A DNA stretch of 64,000 bases from an uncultured Armatimonadetes bacterium. Lineage in GTDB: Bacteria; Armatimonadota; Hebobacteria; Hebobacterales; Hebobacteraceae. Location: contig OY970296.1 in the NCBI GenBank assembly GCA_963716175.1, forward strand, positions 2,656,001 to 2,720,000, written 5' to 3'. A program made the translations under genes and the position numbers. Shown in pieces: positions 19,974 through 45,412 of the stretch. The number at the start of each line of letters is the position of its first letter. The first letter of the stretch is position 1. The notes below the pieces were generated by a model. That model worked only from the letters and a program-made list of their open reading frames with translations. It was not told the origin of the DNA and did not search any database.

Positions 19974-20163
19974 GGGATCCCTCTCGCGGTCTGGTTTGCC
20001 GGCTCGCAGCAGAGCCGCCAACCTTTCAGGCGGCCCGGGTGGGGCCACCCCCCAGTTGGCACTAGAGCAGGCAGCGATCCGCAACATGATTATAGCAGCG
20101 CTGTCAAGAGGGGAGCTTACGGAACCGCCGATGGACCCGGCAACAGCGGCGGGCATGCAGAGA

Positions 20164-21576: not shown

Positions 21577-21616
21577 GTGAGCAGCGATCGTCACCGAGGC
21601 CGCCGCGCCGAAAGCG

Positions 21617-21916: not shown

Positions 21917-22160
21917 TTCCAGCCTCCTGTCCACGGCTATCATACTGTGGCTGGATTCTGCGTCTCGACGCTCTTCTCCCCTTACAAAGACAGCCACTGG
22001 TCACATAGGCCTGGCGAGACAGGCCAGGGGCCGGCAGGCTCAAGGCGCGGCCCGGGCTGACCGACAATAGCTAAGGGTGCCTACGGGCTGTATCACGGCC
22101 CAGTCAGCGAGCGCTGAGAGCGTCTTGCTGGGCTTCGGTTCTGGCCAGCACCACAGGGCA

Positions 22161-25130: not shown

Positions 25131-26056
25131 AAATCCTGGTGGTGGACGACCAACCCGTGTATCGGCGCCTGATCGAGGCCGCGCTGCGGAAAGCGGGCCA
25201 TGGGTTGACGGTGGTGGCCGACGGCGAGCAGGCCTGGGAGACGCTGGAGCAGGAGGAATACGATCTGGCCGTGCTGGACTGGCTGATGCCGGGGATGGAC
25301 GGCGTCACCCTCTGCCGGCGACTGCGGCAGAGAGTGGGGACGCGCTACCTCTACATCGTCATCCTCACCGCCAAGGACGGGCTTGCTGATATGGTGAAGG
25401 GACTGGATGCAGGGGCCGACGAGTACCTGGTCAAGCCATTCAACCCCGAGGAGCTTCGCGCTCGCGTCCGCGCTGGCGGGCGGATTGTGGAACTGGAGCG
25501 GAGGCTGTCCCAGGCCAATGCGCAGCTCGCCGCCCTTGCTTCCACGGACGAACTCACCGGGCTGATGAGCCGCCGCGCCATTCTCCGACGACTACAGGAG
25601 GAGATCGGCCGCAGCCTGCTGGAGCGCCGCCGCCTGAGTGTAGTCCTGGTGGACCTGGACGGCTTGAAGCAGATCAACGACAGGTACGGACATGCCGTGG
25701 GAGATGCTGTCCTGAAGGAAGCCTCCCATCGGCTGACGGCCCTGCTTCGCCGCTACGACAGCCTGGGCCGACTGGGCGGAGATGAGCTGCTGCTCCTGCT
25801 CCCAGGCTCCAGCGAGACCGAGGCCTCAGGGATGGCCGAGCGGATGCGAGCAGCCCTGGCCGGGCGGCCCTTTCCGATGGAGCCGGACCTCTCTGTGCAA
25901 GTCACCGCAGGCTTCGGCGCGGCCGAGGTGGATGAGGCCGGCGATAGCAAGACCGTCTTGCTGCGAGCAGACGAGGCGCTTTACCAGGCAAAACGCCAGG
26001 GCGGGAACGCCGTCGGTGTCGCCTCTTCAGTGCTGGCAGGCGAGGCGACAGAGTAG
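25127..26056 (+). CDS. Response regulator diguanylate cyclase (REC + GGDEF)
   Basis: VVDD, DWLMP; INDRYGH, RRYD I-site, GGDEL; GTGA overlap with the kinase. Confidence 0.9.
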   Translation: MKILVVDDQPVYRRLIEAALRKAGHGLTVVADGEQAWETLEQEEYDLAVLDWLMPGMDGVTLCRRLRQRVGTRYLYIVILTAKDGLADMVKGLDAGADEYLVKPFNPEELRARVRAGGRIVELERRLSQANAQLAALASTDELTGLMSRRAILRRLQEEIGRSLLERRRLSVVLVDLDGLKQINDRYGHAVGDAVLKEASHRLTALLRRYDSLGRLGGDELLLLLPGSSETEASGMAERMRAALAGRPFPMEPDLSVQVTAGFGAAEVDEAGDSKTVLLRADEALYQAKRQGGNAVGVASSVLAGEATE

Positions 26057-26070
26057 GCTGCAACTGCCGC

Positions 26071-27378
26071 TCACCCCAGCAGCCAGCCGAGCATGGCTGC
26101 GGCCAGGTGCGAGATCTCCGCGTGGTCGGAGACTGGCAGGAGCGTCCAGACGAAGGCGTCATCCCAGGTATGCATTCCCTGAAAGTGGGTCCTGGCGAAG
26201 ACCTCTTTTCCCTTCGTGCTGCCCTTGAGATCGAAGCCGTTACGGCCGATGGCCACCAGGTCGGGGCCATGCTGCGACCTTGCTCCCCGGTAGATCTCAT
26301 CCCGGGAGAAGACGCGCTCGATCACGGGCTCTCCCTCCCAGGTCAGATGGCGCAGGCCGTGGGCCAGCTCCTCGCGCAGCGGAGGCGCCTCCTCGGGGCC
26401 TACGCATCCCCTGGCGAAGCGGCCGCGCAGATGGAGGTAGATGCGTCCCGGGTCGAGGGCAAAGGCGCGGGAGGCGGCCGCGAGCTCAGCCACGGAGGCC
26501 GGCTCCTGCTGCTCGTAACTGAGATAGCCGTGGTCCCTCAGCCAGGCATTCACCCTCACCTCGTGCTCGACCGCGGTGAACCCGTGGTCCGACAGCAGCA
26601 GGACTCCCTCGCCCTCGCGGTCCCCCGAGCGGCCCTCGTGGAACCAGTCCCAGATGTCGCCGATCAGCGCGTCCACGGCCCGGTAATAGCGCATCGCCTG
26701 CTGGTGCCGGGGGTGGTCGTCCTGCTCGACCGCGCTCCAGAGGAAGTGGTGCAGGCGATCGGTGCCTGTGAGCACCACCTGGAAGTAGTCCCAGGCCTCT
26801 CGCTCCCAGAAGTACCGCGCCGCGCGTGCCCGCGCGGCCAGAGTGGCATCGAGCTCGGCGAGCAAGGCATCGGGGTCCTCGCGGGCGCGCTCGGTGCTGA
26901 CATCGACGCGGTACCCCATCCGCTGGAGGGCCGGGAGGTGCTCCTTGGGCCACACGCTCTTCGCCAGATCGGGGGCGACGAAGCCGGAGACGAGCGCGCC
27001 GGGCACCGGGCGCGCGGGGTAGGTGGCGGGCTGGTTGATGATGCAGCAGCGCCGCCCGGCCTCGCCCAGCCGATCCCAGAGTGTGGGCACTGCCAGATCG
27101 CCGAACCCCGGGAAGCGCAAGCGGTAGCTGTCCGCGGAGACGTCGGTGAAGCCGAAGATGCCATGCTCCCCCGGGTTGGAGCCGGTCATGAAGGAGGACC
27201 AACTGACGGAGGAAACCGGGGGAAGGGAGGCCCGCATCTGCCTGAGGCCTCCGGCCCGGATGATGTCGGCGGTGCGCGGCATCACGGACTGGTGCGCGAG
27301 CCGTTGCAGCAGCCCGATCGGCACCCCGTCCAGCCCCACCACGCAGACCCGCCTCTTGCTGCGGCGAGAGAAAGGCAT
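26071..27378 (-). CDS. Alkaline phosphatase superfamily / NPP-type protein
   Basis: GLDG, PPVSSVSWSSFMTG, TDRLHH, SDHG, GMH. Confidence 0.88.
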   Translation of the reverse strand: MPFSRRSKRRVCVVGLDGVPIGLLQRLAHQSVMPRTADIIRAGGLRQMRASLPPVSSVSWSSFMTGSNPGEHGIFGFTDVSADSYRLRFPGFGDLAVPTLWDRLGEAGRRCCIINQPATYPARPVPGALVSGFVAPDLAKSVWPKEHLPALQRMGYRVDVSTERAREDPDALLAELDATLAARARAARYFWEREAWDYFQVVLTGTDRLHHFLWSAVEQDDHPRHQQAMRYYRAVDALIGDIWDWFHEGRSGDREGEGVLLLSDHGFTAVEHEVRVNAWLRDHGYLSYEQQEPASVAELAAASRAFALDPGRIYLHLRGRFARGCVGPEEAPPLREELAHGLRHLTWEGEPVIERVFSRDEIYRGARSQHGPDLVAIGRNGFDLKGSTKGKEVFARTHFQGMHTWDDAFVWTLLPVSDHAEISHLAAAMLGWLLG

Positions 27379-27410
27379 GACTCACCCCGGCTTGGTCGCC
27401 TCTGGCGACC

Positions 27411-28013
27411 TCAGATATAGCCCAGGTCGCGCAGCCGCTGCTTGATGCTCTCCTCTTCCTCTTCGCTGTAGCCACGGGTGTCACCGGCCGGGATATACCC
27501 CATCGTCTCCAGCGTGCCGATGATTTTGCCCACCGAGGTGTCAACGTCTTCCCGCCCGGTGTCGCAGACCACCTCGGGATGCTCCGGTGGCTCGTAGGGA
27601 TCGCTGACGCCAGTGAAGTGGGCGATCTCTCCTCGCAGCGCTTTCTCGTAGAGGCCCTTGGGATCGCGCGCGGTCAGGATCTCCAGGTCGCACTTGCAGT
27701 AGACCTCCACGAACCGGCCCACCAGCCTTCGGTTCTCCTCCCGGATCTCCCGGTAGGGGGAGATGGCGGCTGCTATCGCCACCACATCGTTGCGAGTAAG
27801 CAGGTGACAGATGAACCCGATGCGGCGGATATGGGTGTCGCGATCCTCCTTCGAGAACCCCAGCCCCTTGCTCAGGTTCAGGCGCACCACATCCCCGTCC
27901 AGCACCTCCACCTTCATCCCCCGCTCCAGCAGGATGTCGCGCACCTGCTCGGCCAGGGTGCTCTTGCCCGAGCCCGGAAGACCTGTGAACCAGAGAGTGA
28001 ATCCCTTCGCCAT
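27411..28013 (-). CDS. cysC: Adenylyl-sulfate kinase with extra C-terminal RLRDLGYI tail
   Basis: [43 protein letters not shown]. Confidence 0.96.
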
Positions 28014-28023
28014 GTCCCGCCTT

Positions 28024-29403
28024 TCAGATGATGGACTCGCCGATCATGTCCGCTGGCACTGCCACCCCAAACCACTTGAGAATGGAGGGCGCCACATCGT
28101 AGATGCGATACCGCTCGGCCCGCCGCGGCGACCAGCCGGGCCCAGGATCCCAGGCCAGCACTCCGTCCGGGAGGTGGTTGGCATCGTCCGGCCCGGTATC
28201 GTTCTCCCGCTGGTGGACGGCTCCCATCCCCACCGATCCCGCGGAGCGCCAGTCGAGATCGCCGAAGTAGACGATCAGGTCGGGCGCGATGTTGTTCACT
28301 TCCCGGTAGACCTCTTCCGGGCGGAACACCCGGGTGCCGATGGGAGCCTGGCGCTCGTCCCCCAGCGCCTCCAGGCCGGCCTTCACCTCCTCCCGGACTC
28401 GCTCGTACGCGCCTGGAGGAATGCATCCCTGCGGCTCCCGGCCGGCCACATTGAGGAAGATCCGCCCGTAATAGCCTCCCTCTCCCCAGGCCCTGGTATG
28501 GGGCCAGTCAACCATCTGGGGAGCTAAGGGCACTCGCCGCGCGGGCTGCTCTTTCAGCTTCAGGTAGCCCTGCTGCTGGAGCCACTCGTTGACGCAGATC
28601 GCCCCCTGCATCGCCTTCGCGCCATGGTCGGAAACCACCAGGAAAGAGGCGCCGTCCCCGGCCGCCTCCATGGTTCTGCCGATCTCCTCATCCAGGCTGA
28701 GATAGTAATCGTGCAGCACGTGCTGATAGGGATTGCCCGGCTGGTAGAGCCGATGCTCCGGGTCGCAGAACCGCCAGAAGCCGTGCTGGAGCCGGTCCGG
28801 CCCCATTTCCACCATCATGGCGAAGTCGAAATCGTCGCTCTTCAGCAGCGCCCGAAAGGCGCGGAAGCGCGCCGCGGTCATCTTCTTCACAGACGCCAGC
28901 AGGGCTGCTTTGTCCTCGGTGCGGAAGTCCTTGACATCTATCACGTACTCGCCGCCGGCGGCCTGATCCAACACCTCTTGAATCGCGGCCGGATAGGTGA
29001 AGGACACCTCTTTGCTCGGCGTGGTGAAATCGGACACCATGATTCCATGCAGGGGCTGAGGCGGGTAGGTCTGGGGCACGCCCATCACCAGCGACTTCAG
29101 GCGGCCGCGGGAGAGGTAGTTCCATACCGTGCGGGCTTTGATGGCGGTGGCGTTGGTCACGCGCAGAGCGTCGTACTCGTAGCTGGCGCGATTGCGGAAC
29201 CCATACACCCCCAGCATGCCGGGGTCCTTGGAGGTCATCATGGCCGTCCAGGCCGGGACCGTGATGGGGGGGATGGTGGAGTGCAGACGTCCGGATGTTC
29301 CCCGGCTCGCCAGCGCCTTGAGATTGGGCATCTCGCCCAACCAGGCCTCGAGCGCCCACTGGGGAGTCAAGCAGTCCAGTCCGATCACCACCAGGCGCTT
29401 CAT
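28024..29403 (-). CDS. Alkaline phosphatase superfamily / NPP-type protein
   Basis: [30 protein letters not shown]. Confidence 0.88.
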
Positions 29404-30560
29404 GCCTCTTCTCTCCGGCGCATGCTCTCGGTCAGGATCTGAGCCACCTCGGCCCGGGTGAACTGGGCCGGGGGCAGCTCTCCCGCGGCCAGCATCTGGC
29501 GCACCCTGGTGCCGCTGAGCGTGACATGGTCATCGGGGCCGTGCGGGCAGGTCTTGGTGGTCGCCATATTCTCGCACCGCCGGCAATAGAAGGCGTGATC
29601 GAAGAATAGCGGCGTGATCGCGATCTCGTCGGGCTCGAACTCGCCGAAGATGGCGTGAGCGTCGAAGGGCCCGTAGTAGTTCCCCACGCCGGCGTGATCG
29701 CGACCCACGATGAAGTGGGTGCAGCCATAGTTCTTGCGGATGAGAGCGTGGAAGATGGCCTCCCGGGGCCCCGCGTAGCGCATCGCCGCGGGGAACACGG
29801 AGAGCACCACGCGGTCGCGCGGATAGTAGTGCTCGATGAGGGCTTCATAGCAGCGCATCCGCACCTCGGCCGGAGTGTCATCGGCCTTGGTCTCTCCCAC
29901 CAGGGGGTGAATCAGCAGGCCGTCGGCCAGCTCCAGCGCACACTTCTGGAGATATTCGTGGGCGCGATGGATCGGGTTCCGGGTCTGAAAGGCGGCAATC
30001 CGCTGCCATCCCTTGGCGACGAAGAGCACGCGCGTCTCCTTGGGCTGCAGGCGGTAGCGAAGGAAATCCCGGTGTTCCGGCGCGCGAATCAGGTGAATGC
30101 GGCCACCCAGGTAGACGGGCGATATGGAGTTCAGGTACTGCACCCCGGGGTGCGCCCCATCGGTGGTGCGCAACACCAGCTGGGCCTCATGGTCGTGGTC
30201 CACCCGGTAGCGGTCCGCCACCTCCATCACCGCCAGGGCGCGGCCTCCCTCATCCACCAGCGCGGCCTGGCTCCCGGGCTTCAGCTCCTCGTGCTCGGCC
30301 TGCTTCGCCGAAAGCACCACCGGGATGCTCCACACCAGGCCGCCGGCGAGGCGCATGGACTCCACCACACTGTGGTAGTCGGCGCTGGTCATGAATCCTT
30401 CGAGCGGGCTCATGGCCCCATAGGCGATCATCTCAACATCCGCCAGCTCCCGCTCGTTCAGAGCGATCTTCGGCAGATGCTCGGCCGCCTGCGCCAGCCG
30501 CTCCCGCTCTCCGCCCGAGGCGGTGCGGTCAACCAGCTTGCCACCATGTGGGCTGATCAT
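29400..30560 (-). CDS. sat: Sulfate adenylyltransferase (Sat type)
   Basis: PHGG, SPLEGFM, AFQTRNPIHRAHEY, MRYAGPREA, GRDHAG, LSGTRVR. Confidence 0.96.
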   Translation of the reverse strand: MISPHGGKLVDRTASGGERERLAQAAEHLPKIALNERELADVEMIAYGAMSPLEGFMTSADYHSVVESMRLAGGLVWSIPVVLSAKQAEHEELKPGSQAALVDEGGRALAVMEVADRYRVDHDHEAQLVLRTTDGAHPGVQYLNSISPVYLGGRIHLIRAPEHRDFLRYRLQPKETRVLFVAKGWQRIAAFQTRNPIHRAHEYLQKCALELADGLLIHPLVGETKADDTPAEVRMRCYEALIEHYYPRDRVVLSVFPAAMRYAGPREAIFHALIRKNYGCTHFIVGRDHAGVGNYYGPFDAHAIFGEFEPDEIAITPLFFDHAFYCRRCENMATTKTCPHGPDDHVTLSGTRVRQMLAAGELPPAQFTRAEVAQILTESMRRREEA

Positions 30561-30601
30561 GCTATCGCGAGTCCATTCCGGCAACCATAGGGTTGACTAG
30601 A

Positions 30602-30722
30602 GCGCATTTCATAGCCTACCTGCTGGCTGGCCGCACCACGCCCTCGCACGAAATGCGCCTGCCACTGCCTGACGTTGTGCAGTGCTGCTTCATAACCTCC
30701 CCTGGGAAGGTTATGAAACAGC
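30602..30722. repeat. Two inverted repeats upstream of sat (possible IS/MITE remnant or operator)
   Basis: GCGCATTTC/GAAATGCGC (30602-30610, 30650-30658); 15-bp arms with one mismatch at 30684-30698 and 30708-30722. Confidence 0.55.
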
Positions 30723-30775
30723 TTCTAACTGAGAGTCATAGTTTAGCCCACGGCGGGGCAACGTCCTGCCGGCCC

Positions 30776-31597
30776 CTACACCTGCACCCGCAGTGGGCCT
30801 TTGAGGGCATAGCCGAAGATTAGCGACAACACCAGCCAGGGCCAGATCCAGTGCATCCGCCAGCCGCGCAAGCGCAGCCAGGCGTCCGGGTATGAGACTT
30901 CAACCCAGGCTGCGGGCCCAGCCGCGGCCAGGGGAGGCTCCCCCGGGTTGAGAAGCTGCGGCCAGACCCCATCGTCCACGCGCCGCGGTGCCACCCGGGT
31001 CATGTGGTCGCCCACCACGATCTCTTTGGTGAACTCCACTCCCTGCACGGCGAAGCGCAGCTCGTGTCTGCCGGGAGCAACCGCTCGCACCCGCCAGTCC
31101 ACCTCGCCCAAGGCCGGCATGCGCAGCGCCGGCGTCTCTACCCTGATACCCGGTGGTGCGGAGATGGTCACGTCGTCCACCGGCCCCGCCTCCGGACGGA
31201 TCTCCGCCGCCACTATCGCTTGCTCGCCCACGCGCAGGGGCCGATGCCCATAGCGCAGATCGGCCTGGAGAAGGAAGATCCCGACCGGAAGGATCATGCA
31301 GGCCAGCGGCACCAGGGCATAGCCGAGATAGCGCAGATCATCCACGAATACGCCGGCCTGGGAGCGCAGCACCACGGACAGCTCATCGCGGTAGAGCCAG
31401 ACTGCCAGCAGATGGGCGATGATCCGGTCCTTCGCGGCACGGATGCCGCGCTGGTTGGAGGTGTAGCGAAAGATCAGCAGCAGGACCAGGCCGGAAAGCA
31501 GCGAGATCGCCACGATCCCGAGCCAGGGGTTGGCTCGGGCGAAAGGCGCGAAGAACAGGTCGAACCCGCGTGTGATCGCGGCGTTGATCATCGCCAT
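30776..31597 (-). CDS. Membrane protein with EMC3/TMCO1/DUF106-like architecture
   Basis: TM1, charged helical hairpin (SNQRGIRAAKDRI), TM2, beta-rich domain, C-terminal WIWPWLVLSLIF TM; family call is inferred. Confidence 0.55.
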   Translation of the reverse strand: MAMINAAITRGFDLFFAPFARANPWLGIVAISLLSGLVLLLIFRYTSNQRGIRAAKDRIIAHLLAVWLYRDELSVVLRSQAGVFVDDLRYLGYALVPLACMILPVGIFLLQADLRYGHRPLRVGEQAIVAAEIRPEAGPVDDVTISAPPGIRVETPALRMPALGEVDWRVRAVAPGRHELRFAVQGVEFTKEIVVGDHMTRVAPRRVDDGVWPQLLNPGEPPLAAAGPAAWVEVSYPDAWLRLRGWRMHWIWPWLVLSLIFGYALKGPLRVQV

Positions 31598-31602
31598 ATG
31601 AT

Positions 31603-31682
31603 GTAGGGCAGGAGCGGAAGCGGCTAGGCCTGCTTCGCAGGCCGCCGCCCCGGCTGCCTCAGGCAGCCTAGGGGCTCCTGCC
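31603..31682. repeat. Branched palindrome (GTAG-flanked stem enclosing two hairpins)
   Basis: GGCAGGAGC/GCTCCTGCC outer stem; inner GGCCTGC-ttc-GCAGGCC and GGCTGCC-tca-GGCAGCC. Confidence 0.7.
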
Positions 31683-31696
31683 TCCTCCGTCGAAGT

Positions 31697-31888
31697 TCAG
31701 TCCAGATAGCCCAGACCCTGCAGGCGCTTCCTGATCTCCTCCTCCGTCTCGGCCTGCTCCAGCACGGCCGCCGCCTTCTCCAGAGCGTGGCGGATGAACT
31801 CCTCGGTGGAGGAATACCCGGCGGCCTCGGCGCAGCGCGCCAGCCGCTGGTAGAGGTCCCGGTCGAGCTTGATCTTGGGGCCGAACAT
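31697..31888 (-). CDS. 63-aa protein, ribbon-helix-helix-like N-terminus, C-terminal EEEIRKRLQGLGYLD motif
   Basis: GAGGA RBS; in operon orientation; KIKLD..LY..L...AE.AGYSS.EEFI pattern; tail shared with neighbours. Confidence 0.8.
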   Translation of the reverse strand: MFGPKIKLDRDLYQRLARCAEAAGYSSTEEFIRHALEKAAAVLEQAETEEEIRKRLQGLGYLD

Positions 31889-31898
31889 GATCTCATCC

Positions 31899-33938
31899 TC
31901 ACCAGATAGGTTTCCCGGACATGCCCTCCGCGACCGGGAGGCCGAATTCCGCCAGCAGGCTGGCGGTCACATCCGGCAGACCCGGGCTGAGCGCGCGGAT
32001 CGGCTTGCTGGCGAAGAGGATACCCGGCACCAGGGCGCGGTCGACGCAGTGGTCGCCACTCCATCTATCTGTGTTGTCCTCCACCAGGCGGGCCGTCACC
32101 TCGCCCAGCACCGACGCGTCCGAACAGCGGTAGGCATCAGCGTAGCCGATCACCAGGTCTGGCGCCCGATCCGGCACGCTGCCTGAATAGGCCTCATCCG
32201 ACAGGTAGACCTGCGCGATCACGGGCTCACCGGTGTCCGGGTCACGCGCCTGGCGCAGCTCATCCCGGAGCCGACGCGCCAGCGCGGGCCTTTCCGCGGG
32301 ATCCACCGAGCCGTCAACCTCCCTTCCTCGCAGATTGAGGTAGAGGCTGTTGAACCCCAGCCCGTAGGCCGCGGTCTGCCCCCAGTCCGCGTTGGAGAAG
32401 AGGTCGGCGCCGGCCTCCCACTCGGCCTTGCCCGCCAGATATCCATGCTGCGCCAGCCAGCCATTGAGGTTGAAGGCGCGACGGAACGGCGCGAACCCGT
32501 GGTCGGACATGACGATCAGGGTGGTGTCTCCGTCCATTGCCTCCAAGGCCTGACCTACCAGCTGGTCGGCGGTGCGATAGCAGTCCTCGATCACGGAGCC
32601 ATAGTCGCGGGCCAGGCGCGGATCGTAGGCGGGGTGCTTCGGGTCTATCGCCCGCCAGAACATGTGCTGGGTGCGATCGGTGGTGGAGAAGTAGTAGAAG
32701 AGAAGGCCGCGCCGGAACTCTTTCAGCAGGGACTCATACATCCGCCGCCCTTCTCCCAGCACGATGTCGGACTGGTGAAGGTACTCAGCATCATCCAGGA
32801 TGCCGTGCCTGAGGGCCTTGACGTCCTCGGGAAACCCCATGGTGTAGAACCGCCCGAACCGCTCGGCCAGCTCCCGCGCGAAGTCGCGGGGCGCGGCGAT
32901 GGGAAGGGCCGGATCCATCGGATCCAGATTGATGGGCGTGACGTAGAGCTTGAAGTGGGGAGCGGCTTCCTTGAGGTAGAAGCGACAGATGCCGGTCACG
33001 CTGCTGAGATGCGGCATCAGCTCAAACTGCACCGGCAACCAGTCGCTCCACTCCCCTTGGCGCAGCATCACCTGCTGGCCCTGCAGCATGATCCTGGCCA
33101 GCCTGTGCTCGCGGTCCAGCCAGACCTCGAAATCCGCAGAGGCCTGTGGGTTCCCCTCTCGCAGCGTGTTCTCTGGTCCGATGAGGCGAGCCCGCGTGCG
33201 GCCATTTGACATGGTCACGCGGTAGACCGCGCCCCCCGAGATGCCTCTCGCACCCGGCGGCGGCGCGTCGGTGTAGTAAGAGAACTCGCCATAGGTGCCT
33301 CGCAGGTCGGGCGCTCCCAGCCCGGCGAGCTGCTCGGCGCCGGTGTCCTGGGGCGGGAAGTTGGAGGGCACGCGGTAGACTGCGCAGGGCAGGCCTCTCT
33401 CGGTCAGCAGATCCCAGAAAGCCGGGCCGCGGCGGAGGCTCTCCACTCTTCCGTGCGACAGCGGTAGCTTCCATCGGCCAACAGGCAGAGTTCGCTTGGG
33501 CGCTTCTGTCTGCGCGATCGAGAGGTATGGCAGATAGGTCGCGGGATCGCGCTCGATAAAATCGTAGATCCCGTGCCCTCCCGGGTCGCGGCCCGCGATC
33601 AAGGTGGCCCAGGCCACCGGGCTCTGCGGCGGGATGCTGCTGGTGAGCGCGCGGAAGCCGCCCAGCTCCCGCAGCCGCGCGAAATGCGGCAGCTTACCCT
33701 CGGCCATCCAGCGCGCGACCAGCCTGGCGTCGAGGCCATCCAGCCCCACCAGGATCACCTTGCGCTCTCTCGCCCGGGGCGAGAGAGCCTTTCTGCCGCA
33801 CGAGGACAGCGCGGTCAGGTCAAAGGCCGCCAGCGCGCCCAGGGCGGCCAGCTTCTTCAGGGTGGCCCGTTTCGCCGGGTCCCTGGGGCCTCCCGGGTCG
33901 GTGCGCGGCAGCCGTTGCCGTGCTTCGTCTCTACTCAC
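31899..33938 (-). CDS. Alkaline phosphatase superfamily / NPP-type protein with Tat-like lipoprotein signal
   Basis: KRATLKK-hydrophobic-LSSC; GLDG, PPQSPVAW, TDRTQH, SDHG, WSGDH. Confidence 0.87.
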   Translation of the reverse strand: MSRDEARQRLPRTDPGGPRDPAKRATLKKLAALGALAAFDLTALSSCGRKALSPRARERKVILVGLDGLDARLVARWMAEGKLPHFARLRELGGFRALTSSIPPQSPVAWATLIAGRDPGGHGIYDFIERDPATYLPYLSIAQTEAPKRTLPVGRWKLPLSHGRVESLRRGPAFWDLLTERGLPCAVYRVPSNFPPQDTGAEQLAGLGAPDLRGTYGEFSYYTDAPPPGARGISGGAVYRVTMSNGRTRARLIGPENTLREGNPQASADFEVWLDREHRLARIMLQGQQVMLRQGEWSDWLPVQFELMPHLSSVTGICRFYLKEAAPHFKLYVTPINLDPMDPALPIAAPRDFARELAERFGRFYTMGFPEDVKALRHGILDDAEYLHQSDIVLGEGRRMYESLLKEFRRGLLFYYFSTTDRTQHMFWRAIDPKHPAYDPRLARDYGSVIEDCYRTADQLVGQALEAMDGDTTLIVMSDHGFAPFRRAFNLNGWLAQHGYLAGKAEWEAGADLFSNADWGQTAAYGLGFNSLYLNLRGREVDGSVDPAERPALARRLRDELRQARDPDTGEPVIAQVYLSDEAYSGSVPDRAPDLVIGYADAYRCSDASVLGEVTARLVEDNTDRWSGDHCVDRALVPGILFASKPIRALSPGLPDVTASLLAEFGLPVAEGMSGKPIW

Positions 33939-36113
33939 GTGCGAGTTCGTCCTTCCCGCTCGCCGGCAGCAGCGAGTGCCCCTCCATGTAAGCCGGGGCT
34001 TTCACCCCGAAGAGGGCGAGCACGGTGGGTGCGAGGTCAGTGATCGCCGCTCCGGTGGCCTGCAGCGGCCGACTGCAGAAGAGCACGCCGGGCACGCGCT
34101 CCGGGTCCACGCAATGATCTCCGCTCCAGCGCCGCCTGTTGTCCTCGATCACCGGGCCGGCCACCTGCCCTTGAGCTGCCGCCCAGGAGGCGCGATAGCC
34201 GGGGGCATAGCCTACCGTCAGGTCTGGCCCCGCGTCCAGGTAAGGGCCTGGGCTCACGGCCGCGGTGTCGAATACCCGCTCGATGGAAACCTGCCCTGTC
34301 TCGTCATCCCGCAGGCCGGTCAGTCGCGCTATCAGCTCTTGCTTGAGCGCGGCCGCCTCGCCGCTGCTCACTATTCCCTTCGCCTCGCGGCCGGCCAGGT
34401 TGAGGTAGATCCCACTCAACCCGAGCCCGTAAGCGCGCGTGCGATCCCAATCAACCTCGCGCAACCACTCGGCCTCTCCCGCCGCGCCCGGCCTCAGGGC
34501 AAGATAGCCCTCGCGAAGCAACCACACATTCAAGTTTACCCCTCGCCGGAAGGAGCCGAACCCATGATCGGAGAGGATAATGAGCACATCTCTGGGTCCG
34601 AGTTGCGACCGGACTTGGCCCACCAGCGCATCGGCCTGCTCATAGGCCTCCTCGACCACTTCTCCGAAGGCGGTCGTTTCCTTCCCCGGGTTGGCCGCCA
34701 GGCGCTCTTCCCGCTGCCGCCAGAACATGTGCTGCACGCGATCGGTGGTATCGAAAACGCAGACCACGCATCCCTTCCCGCCGTTGCGCAGGGCATCTTC
34801 CAGCATCCTTACTCGCTCGGCAAACAGGAGCTGGCATTGGCGCAGGAAGGAGGCCTCATCCAGGACTCCCTCGTTCAGTGCCCAGGTGTCTTCGGCCAGC
34901 CCCAGGGTAGCATAGCGCCCCAGCCGCTTGGACAGGTAGATGGAGTAGGCGACCGGGTGGGACACCGGCAGGGCAGGCCGCTCGGGGTCAATGTTGATGG
35001 GCGAGATGTATAGCTGCACCTCGGGTGCGAGCTGCTTGAGGTAGCAGCGGACAATGCCGCTGGCGCTGCGGCCAGGCCCCAACCGGAAGCTCACCGGGAC
35101 CCAATCGGAGTACTCGCCCGGGCGCAGGGAAACGCGCTGCCCCGCGATCTCCAGGCGGGCGGCACCGTGGCCGTCAGGTCGAAGCGCGAAGCGCGCCTGT
35201 GCCGGCTTGTCGCTTCCTGGGAGGGGAGGACCGGGAAGGGTGCCGCGAAGCACGCCGTTGTCCCGGGCCAGCGGCAGGCGCTGGCCGCCGATGTGATCGG
35301 CTGACGCCGCGCTCTCGGTAGTGAGGAAAGTGAAAGACCCCTGGGTTCCCCGCAGGTCAGGCACGCACATGCCAGAGAGCAGCAGACCATAGAAGGGCTC
35401 GGGCGGAAAGGTGATCGGCACCCGCAGCACGGTGGAGAAGACGCCGTGCTCCCCCAGCACTGACCAGAAAGGTTTGCTTCTCCGCAGCAAGCGCAAGGTC
35501 GGCTTCGCCAACGGAATCCGCAGACCGCCCAGGCGCAGCACGCGCCGCGGCGGCCGGATCTGCGCGGATGAGAGGTCGGGCAGATAGGTGCGGGGATCGC
35601 GGTGCAGGAAGTCGTAGATGCCATGCCGGCCCGGCCCGGTCCCGGTCATGAAGGAGGACCAGGCAACCGGTGACATGGCGGGACAGGTCGTCTTGAGCCT
35701 GCTATAGGCCCCCGTGTCGCGCAGTTGGGTTAGATGCGGCAAGCGCCCGGCCGCCATCATGGGCTCCGCGATCTTGGGATCCATGCCATCCAGGCCCAGG
35801 ATCACGACCCAATCCACTTGGCTGCTGGCATAGGCTCTCCGCCGCCGGCGCCGCGGATCAGGAATCGGAGCGGCCACGTCAGCAGCACCAGGCCGCCGAG
35901 CACGATGGCCGCCACCATCACGAGGAAGGAGCCAAGCACCGCGAACCCGGCGCCGGGACCGATGTAGGCGTAGGCAGGCGAGGACGAGCAGAGAGCAGCG
36001 AGGATGCCAGTTGCGAGGATGAGCGCGCGCGGCCACAGGCGCGGTGCGGCCGCGGAATGTCCGCGCGAGGATGGCGTTGTAAGACCTCCCCAGAAACCGA
36101 ATCCCTGAGACAC
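33931..36113 (-). CDS. Membrane-anchored alkaline phosphatase superfamily / NPP-type protein; frameshifted at about 35851
   Basis: Signal AYA-YIGPGAG plus TM in ORF 35802-36113 joins RRRRR-AY...GLDG, PAMSPVAW, TDRVQH, SDHG, WSGDH in ORF 33931-36036; start uncertain. Confidence 0.8.
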
Positions 36114-36209
36114 TTCACTTATGGTATTCGCCGGGACACCCGCAGGCCCCTGTTGTCATGCTGCTTTACAGCCCATGCCTGCTGGGGTAAGCTTAGGCCA
36201 GAGCGCTCC

Positions 36210-37697
36210 ATGTCCGGTCAACGACGTCGCTATCTCTGGGTTCTCTGGCTGCTGTTCCTGCCGCTGTTCGCTTTCGCCGTCTACCACGCGTATTCGCGCT
36301 GGCAGGCCTCAGCCTTCGAGGCGGCGCCGTTCACGCCGGATGGACCTGAGGTGTCCCGCCTGCGCGGAGCGGCACAGGATGCCAACCTTGTGGTGTGTTC
36401 GCTTGACGCGGCCCGCGCCGACCACCTGGGCTGCTACGGGTATCCGCGAGACACCACGCCCAATCTCGATCGGCTGGCGCGCCAGTCCCTCGTGTTCCGG
36501 GAGCACTTCACGCAATACGTCTCGACCAAGCCCTCTGTCGCGTCTTTGCTGACGTCTCAATACAGCGACACCCACCTCGCCACCGAAGATCGCACTATGC
36601 TGGAGGGAACTTTCACTCTGGTACGCGGCCTGCGCGCCGCCGGCTTTCGCACCGTCCTGTTCAGCTCGAACCCCAACGCGTCGCCCGGCATGGGGATCGG
36701 CCGCGACTTCCAGGAGATCTACGATCAGACAGATATCAAGCCACTGGTGCGGCGATGGGAGGAGCTGACTCGCCCGGACCCGCTCCTCACCCTCATTGGC
36801 TCCTGGCTGAAGCAGCACGGGCGCTCGCGCTTCTTCGCCTACATCCACTTCGATCCGCCGCACCAGCCCTACCTTCAGCCCGCGGAGATGACGGCTCTCT
36901 TCGCGGGCCGGCAGCCGCCGAACTTCCAGCCTGGCGACTATCCATTCCCGGTCGGTGACAAGAAGACACTGGCCACCGCCGCCCACCCGCCGCTGCCGGA
37001 GTGGATCAACCTCTACGATGCAAATCTGCGCTACGCCGACTGGGCGGTGGGAGAGTTGGAGCGGCTGCTGAAGGAGGCCGGCGTCTTCGAGCATACTCTG
37101 TTCATCGTCACCGCGGATCACGGCGAGGCCTTCGGCGAACACGGCTATATCTGGCACGAGCGCGGAGTGTACGATGAGCTGACTCACATCCCGCTGATCG
37201 TGAAGTGGCCCGGCGAGAGCGGCCCGGCGCGATCGGTGCCGGCGCTGACTGAGAGCGTGGACCTGCTGCCCACGGTGTTCGATCTCTTCAGGATTCGCTA
37301 TCCCCGGGAGGGGGTTCAGGGTCGCTCGCTGCTGCCCCTGATCGCCGGCATCGCTGACAGGGTCCACGACTACGTCTTCTGTCGGTCCGATGGCAAACCC
37401 CCGAGCTATCTGGTGCGGAGCCTTCGTTACACGCTGATCCTGTACGGCAACGGCAAGTGGCGGGCGCTCTACGACTTAGGGGCCGACCCAGGAGAGCGCC
37501 ACGACATCATCGCGGAACAGCGAGGAGAAGCGGAACGCCTGCTCGCGGCCTTCGAGACCTTTGCTCGCAGTCAGCGCAGGCCGCCCGTGGATTTCCTGAG
37601 CCCGGATGCCGAGCCGGCCCCACTGCCGGAGGTGCCCAGGGCAACCTTGACGGAGGAGGAGAAGAAGCGGCTGCGCGGATTGGGCTACCTGCGCTAG
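36210..37697 (+). CDS. Sulfatase-like hydrolase/transferase (Thr at nucleophile position), N-terminal TM
   Basis: SLDAARADHL, TPNLD, STKPSVASLLTS, TADHGEAF; C-terminal EEEKKRLRGLGYLR. Confidence 0.87.
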   Translation: MSGQRRRYLWVLWLLFLPLFAFAVYHAYSRWQASAFEAAPFTPDGPEVSRLRGAAQDANLVVCSLDAARADHLGCYGYPRDTTPNLDRLARQSLVFREHFTQYVSTKPSVASLLTSQYSDTHLATEDRTMLEGTFTLVRGLRAAGFRTVLFSSNPNASPGMGIGRDFQEIYDQTDIKPLVRRWEELTRPDPLLTLIGSWLKQHGRSRFFAYIHFDPPHQPYLQPAEMTALFAGRQPPNFQPGDYPFPVGDKKTLATAAHPPLPEWINLYDANLRYADWAVGELERLLKEAGVFEHTLFIVTADHGEAFGEHGYIWHERGVYDELTHIPLIVKWPGESGPARSVPALTESVDLLPTVFDLFRIRYPREGVQGRSLLPLIAGIADRVHDYVFCRSDGKPPSYLVRSLRYTLILYGNGKWRALYDLGADPGERHDIIAEQRGEAERLLAAFETFARSQRRPPVDFLSPDAEPAPLPEVPRATLTEEEKKRLRGLGYLR

Positions 37698-37718
37698 CGG
37701 AGGGCAGGTGAGTCTGCG

Positions 37719-39146
37719 CTACTTGAGGTACCCCAGGGCCCTCAGCGCCTCCAGCTCGCGCTCGCTGGCGGGCTGAGTGCCTTGGGGTGCGGGCGGGTGC
37801 TGTGCCAGCACCTCGCGTAGGTCTCCCTCCAGGCGCGCTACTGCGTCGGGCCTGGCGGCCGCCAGGTTCGTTTTCTCGCCGGGGTCTTGCGAGAGATCGT
37901 ACAGCTCCACTCCCCCGGGCGATGCAATCAGCTTGAGACTGCCGTCCCGAACCGCCTCCATCTTCCGGGACGGAAGCTCGGCCAGACCGATGCGGGGCGG
38001 AATCTTCTCCCCCTGCAGCAGCGCCTGGTAGAAGCTGTGGCCAGACATCTTCGCGCTGGTCTTGATGCCGGCGGCGTCGAGCAGGGTGGGGACGAGATCG
38101 ATGCCCTCGACCAGCTCCTGCACCTCCTGCCCGCCCCGCAGGCCTGGTAGGCGCAGGATCAGAGGCACCCGGAGCAGCTCCTGGTAAAGCGATCCGCCGT
38201 GCTTGATCTCCTGGTGCTCGAGGAAGGCCTCCCCATGATCGGCGGTGACGACGATGATAGTGTCGTCGTACAGCCCGAGGTGCTTGAGGCGCAGCAGCAG
38301 CTCCTCGATGTAGTGGTCGGCGCAGGCCACCTCGCCATCATAGAGATCGCTGAGGCGCTCCACGTCTCGCCGCGACAGGCCATGCTCGGCGAGAGCCCGG
38401 TCGGTCACCGGGGTCCACTGCTGAGGGTCGAAGACGGCGTTGTAGTCGGCGTTGACTTGGTTGTCCCTGGAGGTATAGCCAGGCCGGCCGAAGGCGGCGA
38501 AGGCCGAAGGCGGCCGGTACTGGTTGTGAGTATCCAGGTAGTGGAGATAGAGGAAGAACGGCCCCTGGCCAGGCCGGTAGCGATCCAGCCACAGCTGTGC
38601 GCGCTGGTTGAGCTTGTCCGCTGATTTGAGCTGCCATACCGAGACCCGCCCGCACTCCTGGTCGAAGTAGTCGAAGCCCCGGTCTACCCCGATGCCGGGC
38701 CCCACCAGCGGACTGGCGGAGATCGCCGCGGTGACATACCCGTGTTTTTTGAGCATCTCGGCAAGTGTGGGAAGGCGCAGGCCCGGGCCCGAGTACACCT
38801 TGCCGTCCAGCTGGACCCACAGCACACCATGCTCCCGCGGCAGCCGGCCTGTGAGCAGGGATGGAATCGAGGTGACGGTCTCTGCCCCCTGGGCCATGGC
38901 GTCGGTGAACAGCACCCCTTCTGCCGCGAGGGCGTCGAGGTTGGGCGAAGTCGGCCGGTCGTAACCATAGCAGCTCAGGCGGTCGGCGCGCATGGCATCC
39001 ACCACGATGAGCACGATGTTGGGCCCCCGGTTCTCGGGTGCGGCCTCCCTGCGCCCACACCCAGGGGCGAGCAGCAAGAGCACCGCCACCAGCGCGGTCG
39101 GGATCAGCCGAGCCCGCCGACCGGTCTTCCGGATGCACTCACTCAT
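37719..39146 (-). CDS. Sulfatase-like lipoprotein (Thr at nucleophile position)
   Basis: LAPGC lipobox-like; VDAMRADRL, ETVTSIPSLLTG, YLHYLDTH, TADHGEAF; C-terminal ELEALRALGYLK. Confidence 0.87.
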   Translation of the reverse strand: MSECIRKTGRRARLIPTALVAVLLLLAPGCGRREAAPENRGPNIVLIVVDAMRADRLSCYGYDRPTSPNLDALAAEGVLFTDAMAQGAETVTSIPSLLTGRLPREHGVLWVQLDGKVYSGPGLRLPTLAEMLKKHGYVTAAISASPLVGPGIGVDRGFDYFDQECGRVSVWQLKSADKLNQRAQLWLDRYRPGQGPFFLYLHYLDTHNQYRPPSAFAAFGRPGYTSRDNQVNADYNAVFDPQQWTPVTDRALAEHGLSRRDVERLSDLYDGEVACADHYIEELLLRLKHLGLYDDTIIVVTADHGEAFLEHQEIKHGGSLYQELLRVPLILRLPGLRGGQEVQELVEGIDLVPTLLDAAGIKTSAKMSGHSFYQALLQGEKIPPRIGLAELPSRKMEAVRDGSLKLIASPGGVELYDLSQDPGEKTNLAAARPDAVARLEGDLREVLAQHPPAPQGTQPASERELEALRALGYLK

Positions 39147-39192
39147 GACGATTCCTGTCTCGGCGCGCCAGCGCAAGAAGCGGGGCGGTCCG

Positions 39193-39900
39193 CTAGCTCC
39201 CAGCCCCGTGCCGACGGAGCAACGCCACCGCCGCCGCACGGCCCTTCGATCGGGCCTCGTACAACGGGGTCAGGCCCAGCTTGTTCCTCGCGTTCGGGTT
39301 CCCGCCCTTGGCCAGCAGGACGGCCAGCACGTCGGTGTGGCCTTCATAGGCGGCATGATGAAGAGGAGTCCAGCCCTGGTTGTCCTGGGCATTGGGATCT
39401 GCTCCTCTGGAGAGCAGGATCTCCGCCACCCGTTTCCGGTCTTCATCGGCCGCATGATGTAGAGGAGCCAGCCCGGCGTCGTCCCTGGCATTGGCGTTCG
39501 CGCCCCGCGTGAGCAGCAGCTCCACCGATTCCGTGCGTCCCATTCCCACGGCCATGTGCAGCGGTGTCCAGCCGCGCTCCTCCCGCGCATTGGCATCGGC
39601 TCCTTTGGAGAGCAGCAGCGCGGCGGCTTTAACCTGCCCCTCGACCGCGGCGTAGTGGAGCGGTGTCATGCCGAACTCATCCCTGGCGTTGATGTTCTCG
39701 CCTCTTGAGAGGGAGGTCTCGAGGGATCTGAGCAATCCCTTCTCTGCCGCTCGGTGCAGCACTGTGAACTGGCCCCTCTCGCAGCTCTCCTCTCGGGTTC
39801 GCGGCTGGCGCGCCCTCCGCAGACCAAGTGCCGTGGCGCCGATGCCCAGAGCCAACAGGATCATCCCGCCAGCGATGAAGAGAATGCGCCGGATTGACAC
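39193..39900 (-). CDS. Ankyrin repeat protein with N-terminal TM/signal
   Basis: Repeated G.TPLH.AA...LL..GA..NA units; start inferred. Confidence 0.9.
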   Translation of the reverse strand: MSIRRILFIAGGMILLALGIGATALGLRRARQPRTREESCERGQFTVLHRAAEKGLLRSLETSLSRGENINARDEFGMTPLHYAAVEGQVKAAALLLSKGADANAREERGWTPLHMAVGMGRTESVELLLTRGANANARDDAGLAPLHHAADEDRKRVAEILLSRGADPNAQDNQGWTPLHHAAYEGHTDVLAVLLAKGGNPNARNKLGLTPLYEARSKGRAAAVALLRRHGAGS

Positions 39901-40141
39901 CCGAACACTCCTCGCAGGTCGGCTCGGTTCTGCCCCGCCAGGCCGCGCGCGACCGCACACTGTATTCTACCCCGCGTTCCGCGCAGTTTCCTCCCTGCGG
40001 CAAGCAGAGTGGCCGCGACCGGTGAGTTGCCATCCCCGCGAGGGCGGGGCTGGGTGTTGCAGGATGGGTGGCAACAGGGCAGAAGTCGAAGCACGACGCG
40101 CGAGTAGTGCACGAATCGGCGCAGCCACGAGGATGAAGACC

Positions 40142-41392
40142 ATGCCTATTGCTGACGGACGAGCGCTGCGAGTGGAAGTCGAGAGTGCGGTGAACGCAGC
40201 CAAGGTGACTGATGTCCACACCCACCTCTACCCGGCCAGCTTCGGCGAGCTGCTGCTCTGGGGGATAGACGATCTGCTGACTTACCACTACCTGATCGCG
40301 GAGACGTCTCGGTGGATAGACATGCCGTACGCGGATTTCTGGGGCCTCAGCAAGCAGGAGCAGGCGGAACTCATCTGGCGCACGCTCTTCCTGGAGAACT
40401 CGCCCTACGCCGAATCCTGCCGCGGCGTGCTCACCGCGCTAAACAGGCTCGGGCTGGATACCGGCACCCGCGATCTCGCTGCCTACCGGCGCTATTTCGC
40501 GGGCCTGACCCGAGAGCAGTATGTGGACCAAGTGTTCGCAGTCGCCGGGGTGAAAGAGGTGGTCATGACTAACGACCCCTTCGACGACGCGGAGCGCCAG
40601 GTCTGGCTGCAAGCCCCCCCCAGCGACTCTCGCTTCAAGTCGGCGCTGCGCCTCGACCCCTTGCTCAATGCCTGGGATCAGAGCTGGACGAAGCTGAAGG
40701 GCTGGGGATATGGGGTAGGGGAGGAGTTGAACGCGGCGGCTCAGCAGGAGGTCCGCAGGTTCCTCACGGAGTGGGCGCGCCGAATTGAGGCAGTTTACCT
40801 CGCGGTGTCACTGCCGCCGACCTTCGACTACCCGGAGGACTCGACCCGCGGCTTGCTGATCAGGGAATGTGTTCTCCCCGTCTGCCAGGAGCTCAACGTC
40901 CCCCTCGCCATGATGATCGGGGTGAAGAAGCTGCTCAACCCGGAGTTGCGTCTGGCCGGGGACGGGGTGGGAAAGGCGCGCATCGAAGCCGTGGAACGCT
41001 TGTGCGTCGCACACCCGAGGAACAAGTTTATGGTCACCATGCTGTCCCGGGAGAACCAGCACGAGCTGTGCGTGGCCGCGCGCAAGTTCCGCAATCTGCT
41101 GGTCTTCGGGTGCTGGTGGTTTCTGAACAACCCCAGCCTGGTGGCAGAGATCACGCGCATGCGCTTCGAGCTGCTCGGCCCCAGCGTGGTCCCGCAGCAC
41201 TCCGATGCCCGGGTGCTCGATCAACTGATCTACAAATGGGAGCACTCCCGCAGGATCATCGCCGACGTGCTCTACGACAAGTACCAAGACCTGCTGGCCA
41301 CCGGCTGGCGAATCGAGCCGGCCGAGATCCAGCGGGATGTCGAGAAGCTCTTCGGCGGCAACTTCCGGAGTTTCCTCAGCAAGACCCTCTGA
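40142..41392 (+). CDS. uxaC: Uronate (glucuronate) isomerase, Bacillus halodurans Bh0493-like type
   Basis: DVHTHL, LLTYHYL, MTNDPF, GCWWF, HSDARVLDQLIYKW. Confidence 0.85.
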   Translation: MPIADGRALRVEVESAVNAAKVTDVHTHLYPASFGELLLWGIDDLLTYHYLIAETSRWIDMPYADFWGLSKQEQAELIWRTLFLENSPYAESCRGVLTALNRLGLDTGTRDLAAYRRYFAGLTREQYVDQVFAVAGVKEVVMTNDPFDDAERQVWLQAPPSDSRFKSALRLDPLLNAWDQSWTKLKGWGYGVGEELNAAAQQEVRRFLTEWARRIEAVYLAVSLPPTFDYPEDSTRGLLIRECVLPVCQELNVPLAMMIGVKKLLNPELRLAGDGVGKARIEAVERLCVAHPRNKFMVTMLSRENQHELCVAARKFRNLLVFGCWWFLNNPSLVAEITRMRFELLGPSVVPQHSDARVLDQLIYKWEHSRRIIADVLYDKYQDLLATGWRIEPAEIQRDVEKLFGGNFRSFLSKTL

Positions 41393-44176: not shown

Positions 44177-44225
44177 GCCCGCCTGCGGCGGGCCGCCATG
44201 GCGGTTGCTGCTGGCGACCTAGCCA
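44170..44225. repeat. CTAG-type composite palindromic element
   Basis: TGGCTAGG...CCTAGCCA ends, two internal hairpins; contains the stop codon of the upstream gene. Confidence 0.65.
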
Positions 44226-44252
44226 CCGGCACGCACGGGGGGAGGTATTCGC

Positions 44253-45410: not shown

Positions 45411-45412
45411 CC

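Follow-up and report, generated by a model that had tools for sequence, protein, structure and literature searches.

What does a bacterium do with 3'-phosphoadenosine 5'-phosphosulfate (PAPS) when the two genes that make it are interleaved with those of four uncharacterised enzymes of the alkaline phosphatase (AlkP) superfamily? PAPS is the universal sulfate donor, and every PAPS-using transferase known to us has the P-loop sulfotransferase fold. The question is raised by a locus at 26071-39239 in a 64,000-nucleotide stretch (the window, meaning that whole stretch) from the genome of an uncultured Armatimonadetes bacterium, a single contig of 4.56 Mb that is 90.85% complete. The open reading frame (ORF) listing, Pfam and NCBIfam profiles and the translations identify here an ATP sulfurylase (Sat), an adenylyl-sulfate kinase (CysC), four PF01663 proteins of the nucleotide pyrophosphatase/phosphodiesterase (NPP) type (NPP1 to NPP4), a 63-aa ribbon-helix-helix (RHH) protein (RHH63), a 273-aa membrane protein and two sulfatase-like proteins of the Thr type (Sulf1 and Sulf2), each where a first-pass annotation of the same DNA had placed it. 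That annotation had read the locus as a relay in which the AlkP-superfamily proteins move sulfuryl groups from PAPS or adenosine 5'-phosphosulfate (APS) across the membrane onto surface glycans or lipids. We conclude that the locus represents a real, undescribed, PAPS-linked multi-gene system. The titles and abstracts of the literature searched contain nothing on this system, on its LGYL tail, or on the AlkP superfamily together with sulfate adenylyltransferase.

Sat and CysC both pass the curated NCBIfam cut-offs for their families. The sat gene (29400..30584, minus strand; translation probably starts at the ATG at 30560) encodes a PUA-like and a catalytic domain (PF01747, E 1.5e-99; PF14306, E 2.1e-53; NF003166, 559.5 bits against a cut-off of 387), and cysC (27411..28013, minus strand) encodes a 200-aa protein with a C-terminal extension (PF01583, E 2e-58; NF002059, 255.8 bits against 244). 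NPP2 (28024..29403, minus strand; 459 aa) lies between the two and overlaps sat by four bases, and NPP1 (26071..27378, minus strand; 435 aa) follows cysC. The minus-strand genes are packed tightly in two groups separated by 191 bases, and the other group comprises NPP4, NPP3 (8-base overlap), RHH63 (10-base gap) and the gene for the 273-aa membrane protein. Sulf1, on the plus strand, is divergent from NPP4, and Sulf2, on the minus strand, comes next after Sulf1. The minus-strand run in which sat and cysC are interleaved with the NPP-type, RHH and membrane protein genes, with two sulfatase-like genes following, is as the first-pass annotation described it.

This arrangement recurs far beyond the window. 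In a sample of 301 genomes of the same phylum, NPP2 gave 79 matches at E up to 1e-30; seven weak or broken ones were dropped, 72 were counted as orthologues (E <1e-100), and 40 NPP2 loci were fetched. A scan of all prokaryotes, with one genome per species, yielded at least 596 relatives, from which 80 loci were kept, many of them on short contigs (fetched loci bear L-numbers and sampled genomes G-numbers; the window's own genome is G000). Among the same-phylum loci, NPP2 is flanked on its two sides by sat and cysC in 17 of 40, an order kept down to 40% Sat identity; L070 has sat alone, and the other 22 have neither. Among the 80 cross-phylum loci, sat is present in 27, cysC in 28 and either gene in 37, with NPP1 (following cysC) in 18, NPP3 or NPP4 in 17, RHH63 in nine and the membrane protein in six. 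The eight-gene order sat-NPP2-cysC-NPP1-NPP4-NPP3-RHH-membrane protein is complete in L071, L074 and L077; L072 has every cassette gene except sat, L075 every one except the last, at a contig end, and L073, L078 and L079 are cut by contig ends. The two halves of the cassette run in opposite directions in L082, and in the window's own family (L032-L036) they are adjacent in differing orientations. Several of the contigs with the cassette order belong to Latescibacterota and Krumholzibacteriia, and a locus from Thermodesulfobacteriota (L144) contains NPP2, a sulfatase-like gene, NPP4, NPP3, RHH and the membrane protein. RHH63 keeps its place between NPP3 and the membrane protein in relatives of several phyla.

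With sat or cysC beside NPP2 in 18 of 40 same-phylum and 37 of 80 cross-phylum loci, chance adjacency is ruled out, and the neighbourhood survey that the first-pass annotation had proposed bears out the association it expected. The link of sat and cysC to these AlkP-superfamily subfamilies is real, old and cross-phylum. By genome, Sat is present in 68 and CysC in 70 of the 72 NPP2-positive members of the phylum sample, compared with 83 and 142 of the other 229. Of the six AlkP-superfamily enzymes grouped in the first-pass annotation, the four NPP-type proteins are cassette-linked; genes of the Sulf1/Sulf2 type are tied to the cassette only in close relatives and are sporadic elsewhere (12 of 80).

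The strongest clues to the organisation of the system are two features that the first-pass annotation overlooked, namely a shared C-terminal tail and a predicted complex of CysC with NPP2. The extension of CysC (residues 175-200; 27414..27491, minus strand) is a C-terminal helix that ends in LGY[IL], and 29 tail-bearing CysC proteins all share L194, L197, G198 and Y199 within it. The same tail closes RHH63 (EEEIRKRLQGLGYLD), Sulf1 and Sulf2. Its motif stands at 12 ORF ends in the 4.56-Mb genome; five are in the locus, one of which (NPP1) is a false match, and most of those elsewhere are on sulfatase-like proteins. Per 10 kb, the tail is found 1.19 times in the vicinity of NPP2, 0.17 times in the more distant parts of these loci and 0.026 times in the genome as a whole. 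Of the 120 NPP2 loci, 17 encode a fusion of the tail to NPP2 and 61 have it on a neighbour within 3 kb (a number that includes some ordinary tail-like CysC endings); it is absent in 22, and undecidable in 20 where the contig is cut.

Which protein carries the tail varies by lineage. It is on CysC where cysC adjoins NPP2 and on NPP2 itself where NPP2 is solitary; in the 13 genomes with a tail-fused NPP2, CysC is encoded elsewhere, tail-less and 179-185 aa long in 12, and with an odd non-tail extension in the thirteenth. A small separate ORF bears it in L086, L107 and L139, and an NPP2 paralogue in Verrucomicrobiota; it is further found on small RHH proteins of two kinds, on sulfatase-like proteins and on a DUF2061 membrane protein. 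Because CysC and NPP2 carry it in a complementary manner, the tail belongs with the function of NPP2 and is supplied either by NPP2 or by a partner. Since ordinary CysC proteins without the extension (L064, L063, L069) end in a tail-like helix, ...KLAELGYI, the extension looks like a second copy of the final helix of CysC. More broadly, the tail may be a general means of wiring AlkP-fold enzymes to their partners and to small RHH regulators.

Several tail-bearing arrangements were seen in the relatives alongside these. A second small RHH-like protein with the tail lies upstream of sat in L031 (11876-12121) and its relatives, and upstream of NPP2 in L072 (9746-9964), where sat is missing; after NPP1, close relatives encode a tail-bearing DUF2061 membrane protein as well. 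For the second RHH-tail protein and the DUF2061-tail protein alike, the window's genome gives no significant match. In Verrucomicrobiota (L083-L094 and L110), mostly without sat and cysC, NPP2 is accompanied by a GHMP kinase, a tail-bearing 575-aa NPP2 paralogue, a hexapeptide-repeat transferase and a GT4 glycosyltransferase.

The modelled complex of NPP2 with CysC scored 0.81 (runs of 0.79, 0.81 and 0.82), and the best of three controls scored 0.00; as a rough guide, made with our own alignments, the score mark is reached by 58 of 80 solved complexes and by 2 of 110 mismatched pairs. The runs share at least 95% of their contacts, and the partner has a pLDDT of at least 90. Recall of a known structure is unlikely to explain the result, because no solved relative of NPP2 is found by sequence: searches of the PDB with NPP2, NPP3 and NPP1 returned nothing better than E 0.02. 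One part of the predicted interface places CysC 26-34 on NPP2 95-101 and 114-120. The other, which accounts for most of it, is formed by the CysC tail (175-182, 186-187, 189-191, 193-194 and 196-200), and the NPP2 side of this part includes 47-48, 69-70, 204, 207, 308-311, 386 and 406, among them Thr48 (the nucleophile), His207 (a ligand) and Arg and Asp residues that do not vary. We infer that the last tail residues, GYI, lie at the metal site of NPP2; the tool lists the interface residues of each protein without their pairs. A docked tail also fits the AlphaFold2 prediction for an NPP2 that has the tail fused to it: pLDDT is about 90 in the helix of the tail and below 50 in its linker.

Bifunctional PAPS synthases, in which Sat and CysC are fused, resemble this arrangement in coupling enzymes around the labile APS and PAPS. 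They differ in that the cassette would couple CysC to a third enzyme through a short docking tail instead of a fusion. A fusion of the synthase type does occur in L043 (7554-9254), where a 566-aa CysC-Sat protein (APS kinase, PUA-like and ATP-sulfurylase domains) adjoins NPP2 and an EamA-family transporter.

All four NPP-type proteins belong to PF01663, the NPP clade of the AlkP superfamily (cut-off 23 bits), with 130.2 bits for NPP1 (E 1.7e-37), 146.1 for NPP2 (E 2.6e-42), 130.4 for NPP3 in two stretches and 108.2 for NPP4, and no other place in the genome matches PF01663 as strongly. As the first-pass annotation had noted, a Ser/Thr nucleophile and the D, DRxxH, SDHG and late-His motifs are legible in all of them (in NPP1 as GLDG, PPVSS, DRLHH, SDHG and GMHTW). 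In 28 NPP2 orthologues the nucleophile T48 and the residues D10, D203, H207, D259, H260 and H410 are invariant; the latter we take to be the metal ligands, following the NPP pattern. NPP2, the one of the four that was folded, gave a model of pLDDT 93.2 with the NPP fold. Its best Foldseek matches are ENPP1, the Xac NPP, ENPP6 and the phosphonoacetate hydrolase PhnA (12-18% identity, TM-score 0.54-0.61, E about 1e-15, probability 1.00). Of 8,000 database relatives that were scored, the best 120 are 59-99% identical to NPP2; none of these 120 has a solved structure or a named function, and they are called only 'alkaline phosphatase family protein', 'phosphodiesterase' or 'predicted AlkP superfamily phosphohydrolase/phosphomutase'. 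NPP2 shares with ENPP1, which is known to hydrolyse PAPS, the Xac NPP and PhnA the fold, the Thr nucleophile and the two-metal ligand pattern. Besides the low identity, it differs from them in its predicted cytosolic location, its modelled binding to CysC and the tail that comes from itself or from a partner.

The four paralogues are predicted to occupy different locations. NPP1 and NPP2 have no N-terminal hydrophobic stretch or signal peptide and are predicted to be cytosolic. NPP3 (31899..33938, minus strand) has a signal of the KR/RR type and a lipobox-like LSSC, is predicted to be an exported lipoprotein and accommodates an inserted domain of roughly 200 aa; its homologues have RRxxLK (twin-arginine-like) or Sec-type lipoprotein signals. 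NPP4 homologues consist, from N- to C-terminus, of a signal peptide, a conserved AYIGPGAGFA, a transmembrane (TM) helix, a basic stretch and the catalytic domain. Under the positive-inside rule the catalytic domain should face the cytoplasm, and not outward, a point against the reading in the first-pass annotation. Its view that the locations differ agrees with our predictions for all four proteins, although the signal and TM segment of NPP4 (35853..36140, minus strand, from the three-frame translation) and its catalytic part (33931..36036, minus strand) are in different frames in this assembly. The frames meet in a G/C-rich run of Arg codons, and at that place, behind 35851, an additional G is present in contigs from four of four public runs; these runs come from different studies, and their contigs match the window at 90-99% identity. 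The break is for this reason either confined to this strain or an error that arose when a G/C-rich repeat was assembled.

If Sat and CysC make PAPS, for what is it used? In the window's genome nothing passes the PAPS_reduct (CysH) cut-off and nothing matches NIR_SIR; no search was made for apr genes. As neither CysH nor a sulfite reductase was found, its PAPS is not made for cysteine synthesis and serves sulfation or something else. In the window's family, PAPS_reduct is matched in 7 of the 14 other genomes. None of the ten locus proteins matches a sulfotransferase family profile, and the genome has no PF00685 match, nor any to PF03567 or PF09037, two profiles whose positive controls were also silent. 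The sole classical sulfotransferase found is a PF13469 protein (match G000:31693-32106 in the 248-aa ORF 31552-32298) located 2.65 Mb from the locus. The first-pass annotation, which saw neither reductase nor sulfotransferase in the window, is extended by the genome for the CysH and NIR_SIR searches and qualified by this one gene. The PF13469 gene stands in an apparent operon (G000:C1:30554-35795) with a 480-aa cytosolic sulfatase-like protein and three further ORFs.

In 13 loci of the sat-NPP2-cysC type, 71 neighbouring ORFs were compared with Pfam, and none of them falls into a sulfotransferase family. In the 31 genomes of the window's class, PF13469 is found in 5 of the 15 of the window's family, including the window's own genome, and PF00685 in 1 of 31. 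Five genomes that are 81-96% complete and all encode NPP2, Sat and CysC (G058, G220, G032, G115 and G002, the first four with the sat-NPP2-cysC order) match none of PF00685, PF13469, PF03567, PF17784, PF19798 and PF01507 (CysH), the absences of PF03567, PF17784 and PF19798 being weak because their positive controls were silent in this search. Some genomes with the cassette consequently show no known PAPS consumer, which makes a new PAPS-using enzyme or a new form of PAPS control likely. Sulfation clusters built on PAPS, such as nodPQ-nodH and raxPQ-raxST, contain an ATP sulfurylase, an APS kinase and a P-loop sulfotransferase. The cassette is like them in encoding Sat and CysC together for putative sulfation instead of cysteine synthesis; the usual targets of such clusters are in the envelope or secreted. 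It is unlike them in lacking a sulfotransferase-family protein, the partners being four NPP-type enzymes, an RHH protein and a membrane protein.

We tentatively favour a PAPS-consuming pathway, run by the NPP-type enzymes, for modification of the envelope. Sat and CysC would produce PAPS for a purpose other than cysteine synthesis, and cytosolic NPP2 would be held on CysC by the capped-helix tail, which would reach into the NPP2 catalytic pocket; where NPP2 is solitary, the same tail, fused to NPP2 itself, would take this place. In our reading, NPP2 would then accept PAPS, or a PAPS-derived group, straight from CysC. The paralogues would pass on or use the group according to location, with NPP1 in the cytosol, NPP4 at the inner membrane face and NPP3 as a lipoprotein outside. 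The 273-aa membrane protein may work with the NPP paralogues, the target being an envelope glycan or lipid, and the tail-bearing small RHH proteins may link the occupancy of the enzyme pocket to transcription. This scheme starts from results that were computed directly (gene identities, cassette conservation, the complementary distribution of the tail, the lack of reductive-gene matches and the predicted locations); to these we add, by inference, the use of PAPS by NPP2, the group transferred, the order of the steps and the target.

An envelope target is in keeping with the envelope-polysaccharide genes that recur beside NPP2 in several phyla. Bac_transf proteins are near NPP2 in L060, L068 and L069, GNVR in L082, and GT2, GT4 and GHMP kinase in Verrucomicrobiota; epimerases, Wzx-like proteins and UDP-glucose dehydrogenase are also among the neighbours. 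A Wzy_C-TPR protein is directly beside NPP2 in one locus of the same phylum (L047:6616-9126) and in one of another phylum (L143:11389-14346), and the window has such a fusion of an O-antigen ligase-like Wzy_C domain with TPR at 9119-11560 (plus strand). A partial parallel is the O-methyl phosphoramidate pathway of the Campylobacter capsule, whose PAPS-like cofactor is the product of a CysC-like kinase. There, too, a kinase of the CysC family works within surface-polysaccharide modification with unusual transferases; the cassette differs in that Sat and CysC pass the cut-offs for true sulfate enzymes and no other genes of that pathway are seen.

Several observations weigh against this reading. 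The binding of CysC and the placing of its tail in the catalytic pocket come from a model and not a measurement, and a tail that fills the pocket could block NPP2 rather than feed it. The 22 same-phylum loci without sat or cysC have neighbours that are unrelated to each other, and Verrucomicrobiota pair NPP2 with a GHMP kinase and a paralogue instead of sat and cysC. The genome counts overstate the co-occurrence signal because related genomes are not independent. The distant PF13469 sulfotransferase could use PAPS, and L095 has a PF00685 sulfotransferase (E 4.2e-11) between NPP2 and cysC, so that a classical sulfotransferase, whose consistent linkage the first-pass annotation had named as damaging to its reading, is absent from the 13 loci scanned and present in this one. 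The silent controls in the class search also count here. Finally, the nearest folds to NPP2 are phosphodiesterases and a phosphonoacetate hydrolase, we know of no AlkP-superfamily enzyme that takes a sulfuryl group from PAPS, and the titles and abstracts searched concern no such enzyme.

In the boldest version of the pathway, NPP2 and its paralogues would form a new class of PAPS-dependent sulfuryl transferases with a covalent sulfo-Thr/Ser intermediate. The invariant tail Tyr would serve as a swinging aryl-sulfate carrier from the CysC-NPP2 complex to the membrane-bound and exported paralogues, which would sulfate envelope polymers without a P-loop sulfotransferase. We regard this as a long shot. 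The first-pass annotation is upheld in the link of the NPP genes to sat and cysC and in the non-reductive use of PAPS, whereas its movement of sulfuryl groups by these enzymes is not supported; the fold matches phosphodiesterases and a phosphonoacetate hydrolase.

A different account, rather unlikely in our view yet of substance, makes NPP2, and perhaps NPP1, a housekeeping hydrolase that clears by-products or regulates the pool. It would convert 3'-phosphoadenosine 5'-phosphate (PAP) to AMP in place of CysQ, pull the Sat reaction by removing pyrophosphate, or dispose of excess APS and PAPS, and sulfation would be left to classical sulfotransferases encoded elsewhere, one of which is present in the window's genome. 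By fold, the NPP family consists of hydrolases. The window's genome has no match to PF00459 (Inositol_P, the CysQ/SuhB/IMPase family), and none is found in the 14 other genomes of its family or in NPP2-carrying f2, f3, f25 and f30, whereas 14 of 14 control genomes were matched. Among CysC-positive genomes, NPP2 occurs in 28 of the 39 without Inositol_P and in 42 of the 173 with it, a distribution that leans towards a PAP-phosphatase role, though not cleanly, as 43 of the 72 NPP2-positive genomes hold Inositol_P as well. NPP2 as a simple CysQ replacement was rejected on this partial complementarity and is retained here as a rival. Against this account, PHP proteins can be PAP phosphatases, and L095, besides NPP2, encodes one with a PHP domain directly after cysC. 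Nor does by-product clearing explain the docking on CysC, because PAP comes from the sulfotransferase and not from CysC. Four paralogues with graded locations, an RHH protein and a membrane protein exceed what such clearing needs, and the five relatives described above have no match to a classical sulfotransferase or CysH that would yield PAP.

The tail could also be the substrate of NPP2 and not its tether. NPP2 would add or remove sulfate, AMP or 3'-phospho-AMP at the penultimate Tyr or the C-terminus, and the modified tails would be switches or carriers, for which the flanking genes make the APS and PAPS. Tail residues 196-200 and the catalytic T48, R204, H207, R386 and D406 are all at the modelled interface, L197, G198 and Y199 never vary in the 29 CysC tails, and the same ending recurs on unrelated RHH, DUF2061 and sulfatase-like proteins and on NPP2 paralogues. 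The position of Tyr199 at the metal site is, however, our own deduction from unpaired contacts, exported sulfatase-like proteins with the tail fit poorly with a cytosolic modifier, an enzyme with the tail fused to it could use that substrate once only, and we know of no precedent for modification of a protein Tyr by an NPP-type enzyme. We hold it to be improbable.

A last alternative concerns the group itself. The NPP-type and sulfatase-like proteins would be envelope phosphodiesterases or transferases of phospho-groups, in the manner of LtaS and EptA, with sat and cysC merely co-regulated and the polymer sulfated by a separate enzyme. The Thr/Ser nucleophiles suit this chemistry, as do the polysaccharide loci where NPP2 occurs without sat and cysC, for instance beside the Verrucomicrobiota GHMP kinase, and L095 with a sulfotransferase of its own. 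The sulfatase-like pair is also relevant. Sulf1 (36057..37697, plus strand; likely start M52 at 36210) and Sulf2 (37719..39239, minus strand; likely start the ATG at 39146) belong to PF00884 (154.4 bits, E 5.3e-45, and 173.2 bits, E 1e-50; cut-off 25 bits). True sulfatases convert the Cys or Ser of a C/S-x-P-x-R motif to formylglycine; both proteins have Thr at this position and a broken Pro/Arg pattern, and they are not formylglycine sulfatases by motif. They fall below every NCBIfam cut-off, including arylsulfatase NF010322 (115.7 and 160.5 bits against 481). Their weak matches to EptA, LtaS and YejM, the Thr nucleophile and action on the envelope from the membrane's outer face recall LtaS, EptA and OpgB, but the scores are far below the transferase cut-offs (EptA, 43.5 against 561; LtaS, 37.4 against 970), Sulf1 has one N-terminal TM helix and Sulf2 a lipoprotein signal in place of a multi-TM N-terminal domain, and no lipid donor is known. 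We consider this alternative decidedly improbable, since mere co-regulation leaves unexplained the exact position of NPP2 between sat and cysC down to 40% Sat identity, the shifting of the tail between CysC and NPP2, the direct link in the modelled complex, and CysC in 70 of 72 NPP2-positive genomes.

Of the remaining cassette members, RHH63 (31697..31888, minus strand) matches RHH_1 with 24.5 bits against a cut-off of 20.5. The 273-aa membrane protein (30776..31597, minus strand) has three hydrophobic stretches, read by eye, and a beta-rich middle. Ten homologues from the same cassette position were aligned; the protein itself matches no Pfam or NCBIfam family, and 11 homologues compared with Pfam at a limit relaxed to E 1 gave no match either. 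An EMC3_TMCO1 fold was suggested by a weak Atlas lead (0.85), with the other Atlas clusters unnamed, and we do not claim it.

An Rfam search of 25000-41000 at E up to 0.1 gave no match and a promoter scan found 0 sites; 11 terminator-like sites form no clear pattern. A hybrid histidine kinase (PAS, HisKA, HATPase, two receiver domains and Hpt) and a receiver-GGDEF protein (22077-26056, plus strand) are convergent with NPP1 at a distance of 14 bases, and in Chloroflexota loci (L090, L100-L102) a receiver-domain match lies directly 3' of cysC. An ankyrin-repeat protein with an N-terminal hydrophobic stretch (39193-39960, minus strand) adjoins Sulf2, and the same pair is found beside NPP1 in L036. 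Elsewhere in the window are a 1559-aa ORF without a Pfam match (15477-20156, minus strand) and a 279-aa radical-SAM protein (20755-21594). On the other side of the locus, GT4 glycosyltransferases and GH57-family proteins, including an amylase/4-alpha-glucanotransferase-like one (41682-51408, plus strand), resemble an alpha-glucan gene cluster.

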